From Plasmodiophora brassicae (lineage: Eukaryota), in assembly GCA_036867785.1 (NCBI GenBank), contig CP145418.1, positions 744,001-808,000 on the forward strand: DNA of 64,000 nucleotides. The letters run 5' to 3'. Within the stretch, counting starts at the first letter, position 1, and each line of letters begins with the position of its first letter. A program made the position numbers and the translations under genes. Of the stretch, positions 8,939 to 31,205 are shown one piece after another. The notes below the pieces were generated by a model. It saw nothing but the letters and a program-made list of their open reading frames with translations. It had not been told where the DNA came from and did not search any database.

Positions 8939-9724
8939 CTTGGTTTGTGGTTTCGAATGTCCTTATGGGCATCCGGCTTCTGGCACAGCTCAACGGCCAT
9001 CGGTTAAGCTTGTTGGCCAGAGGTATTACCTGCGCAAGGGGATCTCTCACAGGTGGGCTTAGTGCCGCTCCTGGATACGTATGCGTCGTTGAGTTCTTGT
9101 GCAACAACGGGCGTCTCGCATGAGGACGCGCGTTCATGGCCGTTCGAATAGACTAGGAGTGCGTTGCACGTCTCGGATTCCGTACCCGAGCCGATCCACA
9201 AATATGGGCGCAAACCTCGACCCGGTGCCTCAATTGCCACTGTGTGCCCAGCGATCGACCATCTCGAGCGGAATCGTGTGTTCGGACTTCGGACAGTGCT
9301 CATCCTGATTCGCTGGCCCCGATTCGCGCACCAGCAATCATGCCCGGGAGAAGCAAACATGGGTCGTTAAGCACCGATCTACGGAAGCTCAAAGAAAGGG
9401 ATCTGGTGGCCCTCTCACAAATAGACTATTTCTGACTTTGCTTATAGGCCCGTATTATGGAAGCGGTTCGTCAATTGGAATTCGTTCGCGTCATTTGCGA
9501 CATTGGTCTTGTTGCTCACAAAAACATACCATTGGCGGCAGCATCTTATGATGGAGTCGCTCTTATTGGCTAGCCGACCACTGGAGATGTTATCTTGGAG
9601 TTCAAAACAGTCATTGCTGTTAGCGCACTGGATGAAGCATACGGCATTCGGACACGCTTAGGAGAACTGGTCGTCGTTGCGGATGTCGGGGACAAGGCGT
9701 GGTTTGAAAGCATCATATTCGAGC

Positions 9725-9932
9725 TGTCATGAGTCATCTCCACCACAATGACTCACGCCACTCACCTTCCGGCATCTAGCCACCTTCCGGCACCAAGCCA
9801 CGTTCCGAGACCAAGGCCTTCACCAGCCGCGCCCTGGTCCTCAGTCAGCATTCTCATGTCTACTCGATACACCGCGTGATCGGTAGTCATCGCACACTGT
9901 CGTGCACCAGCGTTGTCAGGTAGTTCTCCACA
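9725..9932 (+). repeat. LTR1 (208 bp)
   Basis: TGTCATGAGT...TTCTCCACA; preceded by TSD. Confidence 0.95.
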
Positions 9933-10474
9933 TTTTTTTGCGATGAACCAACCGACACGAAGGTGGAGAAAAGGGCTCCTAACCATATCCTCTTCCGCGC
10001 GATCATTGAGGTCCGACAAGCACGGCCTCTCCAACAAGCAACAGCGCGATGCACGACACGCTAGATACCCGCATGCGCCCGCTGACTCCATGCAGGATAT
10101 CGTCAAGCGCCGTCATCAACACGACCCCCGGTTCAGAACCGTACCATCCGCGCCGGACGCAAATCCACCGGCCGGTACCCGACATCATCGGGGAGACTTT
10201 CATCCACATGGAAGTCGCTCTTCCGGCACAACAACCGGCACCATTCCAGCCGTCGCCCCCGTTCCGCATTCACCGTACTGGGTACCTTTGCCCGCGAATC
10301 TCCCGAGGTTCCACGAGTTCTATTGCTCAACTTCCAGGCGCAACTGTCTACAAGCGCAGATCTTCCGTCAGCCACATCTGCATGCACGTCGTTCACGATC
10401 CCTAGTCAACGGCGCCTCTTACGACCCTCCTGCCCTGGGTAGAGTTTTCTACAAAGTCTTCTCCAGCGGCATTA

Positions 10475-10916
10475 CCGGCTCCACGCCACCCTCATCATCC
10501 GCATCAATTGGTCTCAGCCGTCTCCGGCGCTGAACATCCCAACGTATATGGCAACGACATCGCCATCGTCCTCGGTAACGACATCACCGACGGTCCTACC
10601 GGCTCCACGCCACCCTCATCATCCGCATCAATTGGTCTCAGCCGTCTCCGGCGCTGAACATCCCAACGTATATGGCAACGACATCGCCATCGTCCTCGGT
10701 AACGACATCACCGACGGTCCTACCGGCTCCACGCCACCCTCATCATCTGTATCAATCGGTCTCATCGACCTCCACTCAACGACTTCAACCGGCTCCTCGC
10801 CACCCTCATCATCCGCATCAATCAGTCTCAGCCCAGGAATGTGCCACTCCGGCACTGAACGTCCCAGCGTATATGGCAACGTCATCGGCATCGCCCACGG
10901 TAACGACATCACCGAC
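10475..10916. repeat. Internal 124-bp tandem array, monomer 1 (2 full plus 2 degenerate units)
   Basis: Unit CCGGCTCCACGCCACCCTCATCATCC...CACCGACGGTCCTA starting at 10475 and 10599; variants at 10723 and 10789. Confidence 0.9.
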
Positions 10917-11324
10917 TGCCATCGAACAGACCTAGCGGCATCACCGCCACGAATGCACATCCACTCGTTTTCTTGACGTCCACGGCATTGATATCGCCGC
11001 CCAAGCGCGGACAAGCAAATTTACACTCAACAATGGCCCAGAAGTGTGCCATCTCCGACACTGAACGTGTCAACATCCAGGTCCGAAGCAGCTCCCGACA
11101 CTTCTCTCACCCGCAACTCCAGAACCCTGTCACAGATTCTGCGAGTCCGAAACAAATATGAGCCGCGTCTCCAGCCAGATCGCACAGTTCTCAAGTTGCG
11201 AGCCAGCCCAATCACATCAAGCCGCACATCACGCGCACCATCAAGATTCACTTGACCCGCAACCTCATCAAGCCGCTCATCACGCGCACCTTCCACCCCC
11301 ACATCCCTTTTTGGCGGGGGATGA

Positions 11325-11532
11325 TGTCATGAGTCATCTCCACCACAATGACTCACGCCACTCACCTTCCGGCATCTAGCCACCTTCCGGCACCAAGCCA
11401 CGTTCCGAGACCAAGGCCTTCACCAGCCGCGCCCTGGTCCTCAGTCAGCATTCTCATGTCTACTCGATACACCGCGTGATCGGTAGTCATCGCACACTGT
11501 CGTGCACCAGCGTTGTCAGGTAGTTCTCCACA
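11325..11532 (+). repeat. LTR2 (208 bp)
   Basis: Same sequence as LTR1 by eye; preceded by PPT. Confidence 0.95.
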
Positions 11533-11537
11533 TTTGA

Positions 11538-11745
11538 TGTCATGAGTCATCTCCACCACAATGACTCACGCCACTCACCTTCCGGCATCTAGCCACCTTC
11601 CGGCACCAAGCCACGTTCCGAGACCAAGGCCTTCACCAGCCGCGCCCTGGTCCTCAGTCAGCATTCTCATGTCTACTCGATACACCGCGTGATCGGTAGT
11701 CATCGCACACTGTCGTGCACCAGCGTTGTCAGGTAGTTCTCCACA
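11538..11745 (+). repeat. LTR3 (208 bp)
   Basis: Same sequence; separated from LTR2 by only TTTGA; followed by T7-GCGATGAACC as for LTR1. Confidence 0.95.
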
Positions 11746-12287
11746 TTTTTTTGCGATGAACCAACCGACACGAAGGTGGAGAAAAGGGCTCCTAACCATA
11801 TCCTCTTCCGCGCGATCATTGAGGTCCGACAAGCACGGCCTCTCCAACAAGCAACAGCGCGATGCACGACACGCTAGATACCCGCATGCGCCCGCTGACT
11901 CCATGCAGGATATCGTCAAGCGCCGTCATCAACACGACCCCCGGTTCAGAACCGTACCATCCGCGCCGGACGCAAATCCACCGGCCGGTACCCGACATCA
12001 TCGGGGAGACTTTCATCCACATGGAAGTCGCTCTTCCGGCACAACAACCGGCACCATTCCAGCCGTCGCCCCCGTTCCGCATTCACCGTACTGGGTACCT
12101 TTGCCCGCGAATCTCCCGAGGTTCCACGAGTTCTATTGCTCAACTTCCAGGCGCAACTGTCTACAAGCGCAGATCTTCCGTCAGCCACATCTGCATGCAC
12201 GTCGTTCACGATCCCTAGTCAACGGCGCCTCTTACGACCCTCCTGCCCTGGGTAGAGTTTTCTACAAAGTCTTCTCCAGCGGCATTA

Positions 12288-12977
12288 CCGGCTCCACGCC
12301 ACCCTCATCATCCGCATCAATTGGTCTCAGCCGTCTCCGGCGCTGAACATCCCAACGTATATGGCAACGACATCGCCATCGTCCTCGGTAACGACATCAC
12401 CGACGGTCCTACCGGCTCCACGCCACCCTCATCATCCGCATCAATTGGTCTCAGCCGTCTCCGGCGCTGAACATCCCAACGTATATGGCAACGACATCGC
12501 CATCGTCCTCGGTAACGACATCACCGACGGTCCTACCGGCTCCACGCCACCCTCATCATCCGCATCAATGGGTCTCAGCCGTCTCCGGCGCTGAACATCC
12601 CAACGTATATGGCAACGACATCGCCATCGTCCTCGGTAACGACATCACCGACGGTCCTACCGGCTCCACGCCACCCTCATCATCCGCATCAATCGGTCTC
12701 AGCCGTCTCCGGCGCTGAACATCCCAACGTATATGGCAACGATATCGCCATCGTCCATGGTAACGACATCACCGACGGTCCTACCGGCTCCACGCCACCC
12801 TCATCATCTGTATCAATCGGTCTCATCGACCTCCACTCAACGACTTCAACCGGCTCCTCGCCACCCTCATCATCCGCATCAATCAGTCTCAGCCCAGGAA
12901 TGTGCCACTCCGGCTCTGAACGTCCCAGCGTATATGGCAACGTCATCGGCATCGCCCACGGTAACGACATCACCGAC
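12288..12977. repeat. Internal 124-bp tandem array, monomer 2 (4 full plus 2 degenerate units)
   Basis: Units at 12288, 12412, 12536 and 12660; the two extra units explain the 248-bp size difference between monomers. Confidence 0.9.
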
Positions 12978-13385
12978 TGCCATCGAACAGACCTAGCGGC
13001 ATCACCGCCACGAATGCACATCCACTCGTTTTCTTGACGTCCACGGCATTGATATCGCCGCCCAAGCGCGGACAAGCAAATTTACACTCAACAATGGCCC
13101 AGAAGTGTGCCATCTCCGACACTGAACGTGTCAACATCCAGGTCCGAAGCAGCTCCCGACACTTCTCTCACCCGCAACTCCAGAACCCTGTCACAGATTC
13201 TGCGAGTCCGAAACAAATATGAGCCGCGTCTCCAGCCAGATCGCACAGTTCTCAAGTTGCGAGCCAGCCCAATCACATCAAGCCGCACATCACGCGCACC
13301 ATCAAGATTCACTTGACCCGCAACCTCATCAAGCCGCTCATCACGCGCACCTTCCACCCCCACATCCCTTTTTGGCGGGGGATGA

Positions 13386-13593
13386 TGTCATGAGTCATCT
13401 CCACCACAATGACTCACGCCACTCACCTTCCGGCATCTAGCCACCTTCCGGCACCAAGCCACGTTCCGAGACCAAGGCCTTCACCAGCCGCGCCCTGGTC
13501 CTCAGTCAGCATTCTCATGTCTACTCGATACACCGCGTGATCGGTAGTCATCGCACACTGTCGTGCACCAGCGTTGTCAGGTAGTTCTCCACA
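13386..13593 (+). repeat. LTR4 (208 bp)
   Basis: Same sequence; preceded by PPT, followed by TSD CGAGC. Confidence 0.95.
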
Positions 13594-13906
13594 CGAGCAT
13601 CGCGCCCAACTACGTACTGCATCAGCTGTTTGTAACCGGGCTGAGGCATTTCTTCTATGCCAGGGCTTCCATGTCGTCGATCATCTTCTGTGTGGTCGGG
13701 GACGCATCGGCAGGTAGCATCGCACGTTACGGGAGGGCGTTGTTTGGAGTCGGCGACTCCCTCCTGGCCTGGGCGCATACTCGCGATGACCCGCGTTCGG
13801 TACTAATCCCACTCTGGATCGCCGACGACGACAGGCGGGTTCTGGAAAGTCACTACCCTTTCTGGAAAATGGTCAACGTTTATGTGTCGGCAAATTATTA
13901 TGTACT

Positions 13907-14141
13907 GTAAGACTAAAGGCGGCGTCGGCAAGACAACTTTCGATGTCAACAAGGTAACTCGCCCACGAAACAGCCTTCCATTCGAGGTCAAGTACGTGAT
14001 CCACCTACACTTCCAAGCCTGCGGTTTGAACGCCGGTATTGCTTTCAGGTAGTAACATGACCTCGAATGGAAGGCTGTTTCGTGGGTTCCTTAGCTTGTT
14101 GACATCGAAAGTTGTCTTGTCGACGCCGCCTTTAGTCTTAC
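13907..14141. repeat. Inverted repeat, 84-bp arms (13907-13990, 14058-14141) with 67-nt loop
   Basis: GTAAGACTAAAGGCGGCGTC...GAGGTCA / TGACCTC...GACGCCGCCTTTAGTCTTAC; one 8-nt mismatched block and one G:U. Confidence 0.93.
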
Positions 14142-24908: not shown

Positions 24909-26379
24909 CAGTTATAGAGTTTAACCTCACTTTAGTCACTCCTCGACATAGTCACAAACCCCACTTTAGTCACAAGAAGCCAGGAACAATAATTATCCCC
25001 ATAACCATAGTGAGAAGCCGGTGCTCGTTGAAAATGATTTGTCTCTTTATCAGATGACAATATGTGACTCGTCAAGCTTAAACACATGACGGTGGCCGGC
25101 CTCACCAATCGTGGTGACAAACGAGTTAGGTATGGTTAGAAGTTGATCATCGTACCCAGGAGTCACTTCAAAGTTCGTTAACCACTGCTTCGTCACTGGC
25201 GGCTGAATATCCATGGACAACGCAGCCGGTCAAGCCCTCCACGACTCCATGGGCAGTAACTAAACCTGATGCGTTTGTCACATGAACTTTGGCGCCCGGG
25301 GTCCAAATGCTTCGCGGCCCAGGTACGGGAACTGCAGTTGCCGACCAGACGATATAACTTTTGACGCCTTCCGATTGCAATTCTGTTCAGGTAGAAAACA
25401 ACGTCGCGGATGAACGTCGATCCGTCTTGCCATGAATTGGGTTGTGCGCTGTAGTTGATACCAAACGTTCTCCGAGGATCAATTCCTGGGGATGTCGACA
25501 TCAGGTCATCGAAGAGCAGACCAGTTAATTAACGCGGATATGTTGTACCTTTAAGTGCTCGTGGCTGTTTGGACTTGCCGATCACTTGAAGTTGCAATTT
25601 CTCGCCGGCAGCACTTACGATCGGGGTGATCGCTAAACGGTCTTCGAGCCGTTTCGTGCCCCGTTTATCGTTGTTTATCGAAACATACGATCTCGTCTCC
25701 AAGGTCGATTCCAGCTTCTGCCCTATCATTGATGACATGGTCTACGCCTGGCAGCTCCGCGTAGAAAACGACGCTCCTGAAATGAACGTCACCCTGCAAG
25801 TTCACACTCAAGGGCTTTCGCTTGTAGAACTTGCAGGGTGACGTTCATTTCAGGAGCGTCGTTTTCTACGCGGAGCTGCCAGGCGTAGACCATGTCATCA
25901 ATGGTAGGACAGAAGCTGGAACCGACCTTGGCGACCTTCCTCGATCTCGCTGCGTCGGACTCTGAACACAACCGTCTGATCTTTTCTCGATCTTTGAGCC
26001 ACTTAGAGACGGCAGAGCGATCAACGCCAAAACGATCCGCCGCAGCCTGATGGGATATGCCCGCGTTGGCCTCTACGTACTCAATCACTTTGAGCTTGTC
26101 CTCATTCGTGGCCCGATGCCGAGACCTTTTATCGCATGAAGCCATCTGGATGACAACGAGAGTTGACCCTCGTGCGCCGACGTCCGGAGCAAAACCGTCC
26201 GCAAATGGTCGCACCGTGCGGCCGTGCCACGGTCGGGGACAATTTTGATCCCTGCGTCCCTGCCACCGTCGGGCGACGGGCACTCTGGCTTTGGACAATT
26301 ATCCGTATTTCCTCTCGCTATAGTCACATGTGACTATTTCGGGGTAACTCGATTTAGTCACCGCCCCCAGTTTAGTCAC
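24909..26379 (-). mobile_element. Rearranged pogo/Tigger-like (Tc1-mariner superfamily) DNA transposon remnant
   Basis: CENP-B-type HTH (EDKLKVIEYV..AADRFGVDRSAVSKWLKDREKI), DDE_1 fragment (DRLAIT..GEKLQLQVIGKSKQPRALK), repeated TAGTCAC motifs at both ends. Confidence 0.85.
25699..25931. repeat. Inverted repeat inside the transposase, 105-bp arms (25699-25803, 25827-25931) with 23-nt loop
   Basis: Arms differ at 3 positions by eye; the peptide SSFCP.IDDMVYAWQLRVENDAPEMNVTLQV is encoded on both strands. Confidence 0.95.
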
Positions 26380-26449
26380 TGCCACCCCACGTCATTGCAC
26401 TCAGCGTGATATGTATTATATACAGCAACGTGGGTAGACGGATCACAAG

Positions 26450-27842
26450 GCGAAGAACGCGGCCAGCTTGTACGCCATAGACATGGCAAGCCAGACGACG
26501 ACAGCAGCGGCAAACACAACGTGTCCATCGCCATCGTTGACGTTGCGGGCAATTTCGGGTAGCACGACGTCCTCAGTGTAAACCTCACGAATGTCCCCCT
26601 GGGACGCACCGTTTCAGAACAGGGCGCGCGCGCGTCTCGCGCGCGAGTACCCACATCGACGGTTTCCCCATCTGGTCCGCCAGTGCCGACGTTAATGCAG
26701 GACCCGGTTCCCGTCTGACGAGTAGGCAATGTCACAAACCATGCGATGCCCCGCCCCCAACCGTCTGTGTTACGCTGAGAGTGTCCCAGGGGTCCACGCT
26801 GGCGTTCGCCTCGTCGCCGCTGCTGATCGACAGGGCATCGTCGCCCTGCACAACGATGAGCCGCTATCGTTGCAAGTGGCACGCGTTGCCCCACTGACCG
26901 TTTCCATCGACCTCACAATGTTCTTCAGGGACCGGAGCAGCTGGCTGGCCTTGCCCGACTTGCGATTGTGCACCTGACCATCATCGGCAACAGCGCCTCG
27001 TCATTGGCACAGCACTAACACGAGGCAGGGCAACTCGTACCCGCTTGCAATTGTACAGGACCAGGCGCAGGCGGTCGAGGTCGCTGACCTCGCCGCCGGC
27101 AAAGTCAACTGGCCTCGGGATCGGGTCGGGGTCGTTCAGGATCCGTTCGGCGGCGTCTACAACGGCGCGTACGACATGGCGCTTGGCGCCCAGCAGCTGG
27201 TCGCTGGCGACGACGCGCTCCATGATCGCGATCATCCACTTCATGACGGCCAGGCGGTCGTCGCGTGCCTCGTACGCCCTCCCGATACGGGTGCTGCCCG
27301 GCAGGTCGGCGTTGGCCTTGTCGAGCAGGAACGTCACCGTCCGCGTGTGGAACGCGTGCACCTCCAGCGACGTCGCCGCCGACGGGCAGACCGGGTCGGC
27401 GTCCCTGCAGAGGAAGACGCGGACGGGCGCCTGGATCGTCCAGGTCGGCGGCGACTGGAACCGGAACAGCGTGCGTGCGCCCCAGGCGACGTGCGTCGGC
27501 ACCCGGACACGCACCCCGACCTGGTACGAGTGCTCCGGCAGCAGCGCCGACAGCATCGCCACGACGCAATCGTCGGCGGCCAGCCCTAGTGTGCACCACC
27601 CGTCATCAGCGCGCGCGATCGACCGGGGCGCCGGTGGGCGACGCACCGTCGTCGACGATGGTCGCCCATTTCGAGTAGGGGGCGGAGCGGCGCCGGCGGA
27701 CGCCAGGGGCGGAGCGCATCTCGACCCGGAAGCGCAGGCCGTCGGGCAGGTGCCGCATCCGAACGCGGATCGTGCCCGGTGCCGTCACCGACAGCGACAG
27801 GCGCAGGTCGGGTGCGGACGCGCCATCGTCGCCCGAGAACAT
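26450..27842 (-). CDS. Hypothetical multi-exon protein; ends approximate
   Basis: Long GC3-rich minus-strand ORFs (27606-27866, 26981-27646, 26770-26973) separated by apparent introns; no family recognised. Confidence 0.4.
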
Positions 27843-28240
27843 GGCCCCCTCCCCCTCTCCCTCCAATGATACCCAGCCCGACAGGCAACTGGAGCGGTTG
27901 TGGTTGCCCTCACCCGCCCTGAATCAGTCGGTCACACCGCTCCACAGCGAAATCGAACCCGTCCACCGGCGCGCGGGGACCCAGGGCAGGGTCGCTCGAC
28001 GACGCCGACCAGCACAACCGACTTGGGACTCCACGTGCCAGCCACTGATGGAGGAGCGCTCGCCGGGCAGCGCATGACGCTCCGCTCTCGAGGATCCGGT
28101 TGTTGGCACCACTCTGCTCGCGCCTCGTTGCAGGACGGTCGGGGTTGCACACACACACACAGCACACAGGACAGCGCTGCCATGTTTCAAAGTACGGTTG
28201 CCAGCCAGCCAGTCACTGCCAGTCGCGTTGCAGAACGGCG

Positions 28241-29637
28241 ATGAGGACGTCGCGTGCCAAGTCGTCGTTCGCGGCCTATGCGACGTCGCAGGGGCGGGCC
28301 CTCGGCCTGAAGCAGGTCCTCGTGCTGGTGGCGGTCGCGACGGTCGGCGTCGCGTCCGTCCTGCTGCTGACGCGGGCGGCGGCGCGCGCCCCGCCCGGGT
28401 CCGTTGTGCTGAGGCCGCACGGCGATGCGGACGTCGACGTCCTGGACACGGCGACATCGGACGAGGCGACGGGGACGATGGTCGGACCGCGGCCGCGGCT
28501 GCCGGCGACCTGGCCGGATCCCGACCTGCTGGCCAGGGTCGCCATTGCCGGGCGCCTGGTCGTCGCCGCCGTCAATTGCGGGTACCTGGATTTCGTCGAC
28601 AACTGGCTGTCGTCGCTCAAGGCGTTGAAGATCACGAATTACGTTCTGATCGCGCTGGACCTGCACGCGTATGGCTCGCCGCCGGCCCAGGGCGGTTGGC
28701 ATCGGTGACGGGGCGGCTGAGGCATGCGACGATAGGTACAAGACGCTGATGGAGGCGTACCCGGACCATACGGTGTTGTCGTTGACGGTGCCGGAGGACG
28801 GGGAGCACCCGGACCAGTCGAAGATCGACCCGAACGCCCGGGAGTACGGGTCCGCCGAGTTCGGCAACGTCGTGCGGTCCCGCCCCCAGTTCCTGCTGCC
28901 GTTCCTCCGCCAGGGTCGGGTCGCCGTGTGTGTCGCGCGTGCGTCATCACTCATCCCATGGCACACGTCAGGGTACACGGTCTTCTACAGCGACATTGAC
29001 ACGTACTGGCTGGCGAACCCGTTCGACGAGCTGCGACAGGGCGAGTTCGACTTTCAGGTGCCGACGCGACGCCGTACCGGGGGGCGTCTTCGCGCGTCCT
29101 GACGAATCGCGTTGCAGGGCCCAACGGACTCGCACCCGCTGAAACCCGACGACCTGCAGGACGCCAGCAACTTCTGCACGGGAATGCTGTACCTGGAGGC
29201 GACGTACCCGGCGATCCGGCTGCTGGAGACCTGGGACGCGCTGCTGATCGCGCACAACGCCGACGTCAACCAGGGCGATTTCGCCGACGCCCTGGCGCAG
29301 GTCAACGAGGAGGCCAAGACGACGCATTGGCAGAAGATCAAGTTCGTTCCCGGGATGCTAGCCGATGTGGCAGCCGGCAACAACTGACGGGACGCTTGTG
29401 CGGTCGTTCAGGTTCAATATTCTGGAGCGTGACGCGTACCCGCCCGGGTACATGTACTTCAAGGTGGACGACCGCTGGAAGAACAAGGACACGTACGTCC
29501 CGAAGCGGGACCCGGTCATCGTCCACGCCAACTGGGTCACCGGCAAGGAAACGAAGCGCAACATCCTGAAGAAGGCCAACCTGTGGACGCCAACGGGCAA
29601 GCTCCTGCCCTGTCGCGCCGGCGATAACGAGAAATGA
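28241..29637 (+). CDS. Nucleotide-diphospho-sugar transferase (GT77, PF03407-like), paralog 1
   Basis: TM; VNCGYLDFVDNWL; LIALD; YTVFYSDIDTYWLANPF (DxD); FCTGMLYL; NQ; IVHANWVTGKETK. Confidence 0.88.
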
Positions 29638-29749
29638 ACTTGACAGGCCGTGAGTCACCGTTCCACGTCGTTCCTCTTCCGCCGGATGGGTCTATAACAG
29701 GCCCAGGCCTGAGAGGCAGCGGGCCGCCAGACTGATTCGTCGTTTCGAT

Positions 29750-31205
29750 ATGGCGACGACGGCGACATCTGAATCGCAGCCGTTCTTCTCCGCGTACATG
29801 GGGCAGTCGAGTCAGGCGGCGCGTATGAGAAAGAGGGCCGGCATTGCGGTCGTGGCCCTCATCGGGGTGCTGTCTCTGGTGCTGCTCGTCAGGGCCTCCC
29901 AGACGACAGTGCCCACGAACGCGCTGCTGCCACGTGTCTCGATCGACGACATCGTACCCAAGGTCAACTTGCGAATCAACAGGCCGCTCGCGTCTATCGT
30001 TCCAGACCGTATGGCGCGCATGCCCGACCCGATGCAGAAAGCGTCGTTGCCATCATCCGTTTGGCCTGATCCGGACCTGCTGTCTCGAGTTGCTATTGCA
30101 AAGCGCCTCGTTGTCGCTGCCGTCAATTGCGGGTCCGCCATTGCGACCTATTTCTTGTCGCGCTCCTGGGTGCTCATGACGTCCTGCAGGTACCTCGATT
30201 TCGTCGACAACTGGCTCGCATCGATTCAGGCGTTGGGCATCACGAATTACATTCTCATCGCCCTGGACATGCATGCGTACGTGTGGCATGCGTGTACATC
30301 ATGACGCGGTGGCCTAATTGAAACTGATAGGTACAAGACGCTGATGGGTGCGTACCCCGACCACACAATCCTGTCAGTAACGGTCTCGGAGAGCACCCAG
30401 AATCAGGCCCAGCCCGACCCAAACGCCCGGGAATACGGTTCGGCTGGATTCGGCAACGTTGTTCGTTCCCGTCCCGAGTTCCTGCTGCCGTTTCTACGTC
30501 AAGGTTGGGTCGCAAACGGTTGGAAGCGCATTCGCGATCTATAACTGTGCCGTACGTCTTCAGGGTACACTGTCTTCTATAGCGACATTGATACATTCTG
30601 GCTGGGGAATCCGTTCGACGAGATTCGACAGGGCGAATATGATGCCCAGGCAGGATTTCGCAGATGCAAGCATTCGTTCTGTGTGCCCTGACATACCGTG
30701 TCCGTGTAGGGGCCTACCGATGGCCACCCATCAGCGCCGGACGATCGTCAAGATGCCAGCAACATTTGCACGGGCATGCTCTACCTGGAGGCCACCTATC
30801 CCACTATCCGCCTGCTCGAGAAATGGAGTTCTTTGCTGATTCAAACCAACGCCGAGGTCAACCAGGCGCCGTTCGCAGACGCTCTTGCCACTCTCGTGCG
30901 CGGCGATGAGAGCGGTCACACTCAAAAGATCAGGTAGGGGACGAACGTCGGCCTCGCTGCTGGCCAATTCTCACGCTACGCTCCTCAGGTTCAACGTTCT
31001 CGAACGCGACGCGTACCCACCCGGGTACATGTACTTCAAGAAAGACGCGCGCTGGACGTCCATGCATACGTACAAGCCGAAACGGTCGCCCGTCATCGTG
31101 CACGCCAACTGGGTCGTCGGCAAGAACAAGAAGCGGCAGATTCTGCAGGAGAAAGGCCTCTGGAAGCCGACCGGCAAGTTGCTGCCGTGTCGCGTCGACC
31201 AATGA
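29750..31205 (+). CDS. Nucleotide-diphospho-sugar transferase (GT77), tandem paralog 2
   Basis: Same motifs (YSDIDTFWLGNPF, ICTGMLYL, IVHANWVVGKNKK). Confidence 0.88.

Follow-up and report, generated by a model that had tools for sequence, protein, structure and literature searches.

A head-to-tail retrotransposon dimer with four long terminal repeats in Plasmodiophora brassicae and a probable junction of the kind found in 2-LTR circles

We analyzed a 64,000-nucleotide (nt) stretch of the Plasmodiophora brassicae genome (assembly GCA_036867785.1, contig CP145418.1, positions 744,001 to 808,000 of the forward strand), hereafter called the window, and describe a long terminal repeat (LTR) retroelement that occupies window positions 9720 to 13598 as a head-to-tail dimer. 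Two complete copies, each with its own pair of LTRs, are separated by the five bases TTTGA and enclosed together by a single 5-bp target-site duplication. The element is a small non-autonomous, non-coding LTR retrotransposon with 208-bp LTRs and an internal region of 1.4 to 1.6 kb. The explanation that we favor on balance is that the middle of the dimer is a junction of the type known from 2-LTR circles, most likely brought into the chromosome when such a circle recombined with a resident copy of the element. No test that the sequence allows has overturned this interpretation, which is the best available; every step beyond the junction sequence itself is inferred.

RESULTS

Four identical LTRs lie within one target-site duplication

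A sequence-only reading of the window had proposed the order target-site duplication, LTR, internal region, LTR, TTTGA, LTR, internal region, LTR, target-site duplication. This order was borne out, with four LTRs and one CGAGC pair at the positions listed in Table 1. The LTRs, previously judged identical by eye, are indeed so: each of the four is 208 nt long, starts with TG and ends with CA, and no mismatch separates any of them (4/4 identical). The first bases of each LTR are TGTCATG and the last are TCTCCACA. The single CGAGC duplication encloses the whole dimer, its two copies adjoining LTR1 and LTR4, and the chance that two 5-bp flanks match is 1/1024. The monomers measure 1808 and 2056 bp. 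A fifth LTR copy was not found in the window, where the other BLAST matches were 11 to 31 nt long with E values of at least 0.34. No open reading frame (ORF) longer than 124 amino acids runs across the reconstructed empty site, which therefore gives no sign of a disrupted gene.

The linker matches the element-internal flanks of the LTRs

The bases that follow both 5′ LTRs are TTTTTTTGCG, and those that precede both 3′ LTRs are GGCGGGGGATGA. The linker TTTGA can be composed from these flanks, as TT or TTT from after each 5′ LTR plus TGA or GA from before each 3′ LTR. This composition had been pointed out in the earlier reading and is confirmed here. Only 5 of the 1024 possible 5-mers (0.5%) consist of i bases from after the 5′ LTR followed by 5 − i bases from before the 3′ LTR, and TTTGA is among them. 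The same fact is seen another way in the output of Tandem Repeats Finder, in which positions 11322 to 11748 form 2.0 perfect copies of a 213-nt unit made up of TGA, the LTR and TT. The junction CA-TTTGA-TG joins the 3′ end of one LTR to the 5′ end of the next, head to tail, as in a 2-LTR circle. It admits three divisions: 2+3 bases, 3+2, and 3+3 in which the two ends share one T (a 1-nt overlap). The earlier claim that the junction maps both priming sites thus holds to within 1 nt but not exactly, since all three divisions fit.

Linear complementary DNA (cDNA) of retroviruses and LTR retrotransposons is described as carrying a few additional bases outside the CA at either end, bases that integrase removes before strand transfer; 2-LTR circles are described as linear cDNA joined end to end in the nucleus, with both uncut ends retained at the junction, often alongside small insertions or deletions (PMC9324142; 10.1101/2022.09.25.509424; PMC11054761). 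On a full-length linear cDNA of the present element, the parts of TTTGA would be the terminal bases that integrase trims away. The reading of the linker as joined, unprocessed cDNA ends fits best, because neither middle LTR lacks any part, TTTGA differs from the target-site sequence, and it equals the element-internal flanks of the LTRs. We consider it quite probable that the middle junction consists of ligated uncut cDNA ends, of the 2-LTR-circle kind, and that the dimer is real.

The two copies are distinct

The internal regions of the two copies differ by one substitution (A at 10854, T at 12915) and by one 248-nt insertion or deletion, which corresponds to two extra 124-bp units in copy 2. 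These extra units carry one and four private variants, five in all. Copy 1 equals copy 2 minus repeat units 3 and 4, and not the reverse. Given the private variants of the extra units and the substitution, the copies are distinct sequences resolved by the assembler rather than one sequence written twice. The difference in repeat number may have arisen while the element was being reverse-transcribed, by slippage of the template on the 124-bp repeats, or later, by unequal exchange.

Table 1. Features of the dimer, in window coordinates
Feature	Position	Strand	Description	Program
Target-site duplication, left copy	9720..9724		CGAGC, 5 bp	
LTR1	9725..9932	+	208 nt, TG..CA	
Internal region 1	9933..11324	+	1392 nt, non-coding	
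Tandem repeat of internal region 1	10473..10764	+	124-bp unit, 2.4 copies	Tandem Repeats Finder
LTR2	11325..11532	+	same sequence as LTR1	
Linker	11533..11537	+	TTTGA, between LTR2 and LTR3	
LTR3	11538..11745	+	same sequence as LTR1	
Internal region 2	11746..13385	+	1640 nt	
Tandem repeat of internal region 2	12286..12825	+	124-bp unit, 4.4 copies	Tandem Repeats Finder
LTR4	13386..13593	+	same sequence as LTR1	
Target-site duplication, right copy	13594..13598		CGAGC, 5 bp	

A circle recombining with a resident copy is the favored origin of the dimer

Two routes had been suggested at the outset, recombination of a circle and end joining of cDNAs, and they are still the two leading ones. Under circle recombination, the first event would be the normal integration of a monomer at CGAGC. 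This resident monomer and a 2-LTR circle of the same family would then have undergone one homologous crossover of the Campbell type. Wherever the crossover fell, it would yield LTR, internal region, LTR, junction, LTR, internal region, LTR, with the original duplication kept. If the junction is real, the chances of this route are somewhat better than even. On the same condition, we give a distinctly smaller share to end-joined cDNAs or a reverse transcriptase jump, from which a dimer would have integrated via its outer ends. What probability is then left would go to integrase cutting a dimeric circle or to retrotransposition of read-through RNA from an older dimer.

The same understanding of the junction is shared by an alternative in which a preformed dimer was integrated by integrase via its processed outer ends, CGAGC being made at that moment. 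Such a dimer could come from ligated cDNAs, a template jump by reverse transcriptase, a cut dimeric circle, or read-through RNA of an older dimer. It would produce the same final structure, with one duplication enclosing everything, and two cDNAs could show slight differences like those between the copies; moreover, cleavage of 2-LTR circle junctions by integrase has been reported for a spumaretrovirus (PMC1180852). We nevertheless rate it lower, as unlikely if worth serious consideration, because integrase must have trimmed and used the outer ends of the very molecules whose inner ends it left untrimmed. There would also be competition for the same ends between end-joining enzymes and intasome assembly, and a read-through RNA with two primer sites and two purine tracts should, on the standard scheme of reverse transcription, give mostly monomers. 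Uncollapsed alleles that appear as false tandem duplications are a known type of assembly error, and one true copy, perhaps present as two-unit and four-unit alleles in a mixed sample, might have been set in tandem in this way, by the assembler or through chimeric reads. Field material of obligate parasites can be mixed. A mis-join, however, would be expected to give a common LTR or an arbitrary breakpoint, not two whole LTRs plus the expected five bases; both outer junctions are clean and the duplication is perfect, and we regard an artefact as improbable.

Explanations that dispense with joined cDNA ends fare worse. The perfect 2.0-copy tandem at 11322 to 11748 is formally what would result if the middle LTR of a three-LTR tandem, together with two to three flanking bases on each side, had undergone a secondary 213-bp duplication by slippage or unequal exchange at a 1-nt microhomology, and three-LTR tandems are described as common (PMC1950507; 10.1101/452573). 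Chance would then have to put each breakpoint no more than 3 nt from the respective LTR end, and two rare events would be needed in place of one, which makes this origin very unlikely. A tandem with a common LTR, whether formed by unequal exchange, template switching or recombination before integration, was rejected: it predicts three LTRs, and four are seen, with 11325 to 11532 and 11538 to 11745 both full. TTTGA might instead be a remnant of target-site sequence between two independent insertions, at the same target, adjacent or nested. Transposon dimers are known to arise by double insertion, which puts a copy of the target duplication into the junction (PMC5932611). Here, double insertion at one target would place the flanking CGAGC in the junction, which instead reads TTTGA. 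Neither adjacent nor nested insertion is compatible with the flanks, which mismatch for both monomers (CGAGC/TTTGA and TTTGA/CGAGC) and for the LTR2-TTTGA-LTR3 unit (GATGA/TTTTT). The target-site remnant, one of two objections that the earlier reading had raised against itself, is ruled out on these grounds provided that the sequence is correct, and two independent insertions are scarcely credible.

Several points weigh against the origin that we favor, a 2-LTR-circle-type junction introduced by recombination. Equating the five linker bases exactly with cDNA termini draws its support from analogy with retroviruses and LTR elements. Five bases are one more than the 2+2 typical of retroviruses, and such a linker needs three extra bases at one end, or three at both ends with a 1-nt overlap. 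A primer binding site of the TGG type, matching the 3′ end of a transfer RNA (tRNA), was found within 8 nt of the LTR on neither strand. Nothing in the sequence tells circle recombination from integration of a pre-joined dimer. Finally, both the dimer and its TTTGA junction rest on one locus in one assembly.

A broader proposal, which we find rather doubtful, holds that dimers like this one form regularly in this organism, where circular or concatemeric by-products of retrotransposition would not invariably be dead ends. A 2-LTR circle, dimeric circle or concatemer would then be returned to the chromosome, possibly by integrase acting at the circle junction; alternatively, end-joined cDNAs of the non-autonomous element would integrate. 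If this were true, dimers would seed tandem arrays and further circles.

A second insertion shows the ends of integrated copies

Public sequence data of 20 runs from 9 studies contain 0.82 to 0.86 of the sampled words of positions 9600 to 13720; their labels name three organisms and 'plant metagenome', and no RNA run is listed on record for them. In run X20, two similarly deep contigs (689 and 527) bear the end and the start of a near-identical LTR (two and one differing bases, respectively), and TTCCC immediately follows the CA and immediately precedes the TG of this LTR. These flanks indicate that integrated copies of the family end exactly in TG..CA and are bordered by a 5-bp duplication, and thus that TTTGA is not part of the integrated LTR end. 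The X20 insertion may be a solo LTR, situated in a region of high representation and perhaps of high expression.

We compared the repeat-free stretch across the junction, positions 11433 to 11637, with contigs of four runs, X3, X13, X18 and X20, of which X3 and X13 are guessed to be DNA. None of the two contigs of X18 or the five of X20 bridged 11532/11538. For X3 (42 aligned pieces) and X13 (24 aligned pieces), none of the pieces listed did so, 51 not being among those listed. These non-bridging contigs are neither support nor counter-evidence, because rare forms are lost from contigs and the assembled isolate may not be the same as those behind the runs. We did not use an overlap of X18 contigs at LTR positions 100 to 115 as a sign of RNA ends (a short R region); a contig break at LTR position 115/116 recurs in X20 and X3, which leaves room for branching of the assembly graph. 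In a collection of metagenome contigs, the junction pattern had 0 matches and the 18-nt LTR end matched 17 loci, all of them chance matches of 18 to 27 nt; the element is absent from that collection. Viral contigs gave 0 matches to the element.

The element is non-coding and resembles miniature LTR elements

No Pfam family was detected in ORFs of the element in either of two profile searches, one with 14 ORFs and another with 98. The larger set comprises 98 of the 139 listed ORFs of at least 130 amino acids; the other 41 were omitted, being either overlapping frames from gene-rich parts or the second copy of an ORF of the element. Matches to gag, reverse transcriptase or integrase were likewise absent among the window ORFs searched (0/14 and 0/98), so the gag and pol genes (pol for protease, reverse transcriptase/RNase H and integrase) that characterize autonomous Ty1/copia, Ty3/gypsy and Bel-Pao elements are not seen here. 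The longest ORF of the element (217 amino acids) had no relative among 681 candidates. Because 124 is not a multiple of 3, the tandem repeats shift the reading frame and cannot encode a repeat protein. There was no Rfam match between 9500 and 14300, and no 5S or tRNA-like part.

Short LTRs of about 100 to 250 bp without coding capacity are features that the element shares with terminal-repeat retrotransposons in miniature (TRIMs). A whole TRIM is below roughly 1 to 1.5 kb, a size that the monomers of 1808 and 2056 bp exceed. The element is TRIM-like in its LTRs but longer. It must be moved in trans by an unseen autonomous partner. The recent activity that had been read from the identical LTRs can accordingly stand only as activity of that partner, and not as the element's own, the element being non-coding.

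The + strand of the element is rich in C, with a GC skew of −0.26 to −0.30 compared with about 0 outside the element. Internal region 1 begins with a run of seven T (9933 to 9939); at its other end, a T-run is followed by the G-rich purine tract GGCGGGGGA (11313 to 11321) and finally by TGA. Candidate polypurine tracts exist on both strands, namely the T-run plus GGCGGGGGA located 3 nt before the LTR on the + strand and a run of seven A on the − strand, and either could serve. Every LTR contains 2.9 copies of an 18-bp unit, CACCTTCCGGCACCAAGC, at LTR positions 39 to 91 (9763 to 9815 in LTR1). Enhancer repeats of U3 usually sit where these LTR positions lie, and the 18-bp repeat may be enhancer-like. 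Tf1-like self-priming and a tRNA-type primer site were sought on both strands and not found; Tf1-like self-complementarity of more than 8 nt was absent from either strand. As no canonical primer binding site was found after the LTR on either strand, the orientation of the element can only be inferred. It is probably +, because the T-run and GGCGGGGGA precede the 3′ LTR, as in retroviruses, and the 18-bp repeat occupies the place of a U3 enhancer.

Surroundings of the dimer

The window, with a G+C content of 56%, contains exons with myotubularin phosphatase, DEAD-box helicase plus Helicase_C, and DENN domains, and no tRNA genes were found in it. These exons mark the window as eukaryotic. The myotubularin exon has its best named relative in a Spongospora subterranea protein (57% identity), which agrees with a plasmodiophorid plant parasite as the host. 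About 310 bp downstream of the dimer, an inverted repeat at 13907 to 14141 has 87-nt arms that are 92% complementary and lie 61 nt apart; it may be a long hairpin or an element resembling a miniature inverted-repeat transposable element. An ORF at 25792 to 26298 (−) has a CENP-B_N / HTH_23 DNA-binding domain (E value 3.8e-07) and a weak match to the helix-turn-helix of IS630-type transposases, and is possibly a remnant of a pogo/Tc1-like transposase or a domesticated gene. Positions 26001 to 30000 have a G+C content of 0.64 to 0.65, against 0.52 to 0.60 elsewhere in the window, and hold many overlapping long frames on both strands, none with a Pfam match.

DISCUSSION

Retrovirologists have long argued over whether 2-LTR circles can ever contribute to integrated DNA (PMC11054761). 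If our interpretation is true, a natural pair of copies with an intact circle-type junction inside a target-site duplication would document directly, in genomic DNA, that such molecules can find their way back into a germline-equivalent genome. It would also add a route to tandem LTR elements besides those that proceed through a common LTR. Furthermore, the dimer would preserve the cDNA ends, as they are before trimming, of an element from Rhizaria, in which retrotransposon biology is almost unstudied. In a full-text literature search, in which subscription journals are sparsely covered, we found no description of a four-LTR dimer with one target-site duplication and an intact junction, and this is not proof of absence.

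Comparison with known systems

The closest likeness is to the 2-LTR circles of retroviruses and LTR retrotransposons, in which LTR end likewise meets LTR start with the untrimmed cDNA termini between them (PMC9324142; 10.1101/2022.09.25.509424; PMC11054761). Those circles are extrachromosomal and regarded as dead-end by-products, whereas the junction of the dimer lies in a chromosome assembly, between full copies and within one duplication. Circles of retroviruses have four junction bases; the dimer has five, without an insertion or deletion. In an integrase-defective murine leukaemia virus, Hagino-Yamagishi et al. (1987) reportedly observed integrated head-to-tail proviral oligomers with LTR-LTR junctions, insertions that are said to have been independent of integrase and thus without a regular target duplication. 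The dimer described here differs from those oligomers in its TG..CA outer ends and its perfect 5-bp duplication.

Three-LTR complex elements likewise have two internal regions in tandem and often one target-site duplication (PMC1950507; 10.1101/452573). They share their middle LTR, in contrast to the two complete middle LTRs and five bases of the dimer. Unequal recombination, template switching (Sabot and Schulman 2007) and recombination before integration (Zeng and Sun 2018) have been proposed for such tandems, and none of them yields two middle LTRs plus five bases. Tandem LTR-LTR junctions at low frequency have been reported from short reads of Drosophila populations (McGurk and Barbash 2018, PMC5932611). 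They were inferred from read pairs and are not known to have been described with full locus, flanks or junction bases (PMC5932611). The double-insertion model of McGurk and Barbash leads one to expect a target duplication in the junction, which is not the case in the dimer (PMC5932611).

Transposable elements are estimated to make up 11 to 14% of the genome of the clubroot pathogen and to be mostly Gypsy and Copia LTR elements (10.64898/2026.10.14.759018). TRIM and Cassandra elements, along with other non-autonomous LTR elements, resemble the present one in their short LTRs, lack of coding capacity and tendency to form tandems (PMC7215508; PMC4079214). The usual TRIM is shorter than the 1.8- to 2.06-kb monomer, and no 5S or tRNA-like part was found in the present element. 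TRIM arrays, as described in the same sources, alternate single LTRs with internal regions, unlike the dimer, in which two complete copies, each bounded by its own LTRs, meet across five bases (PMC7215508; PMC4079214).

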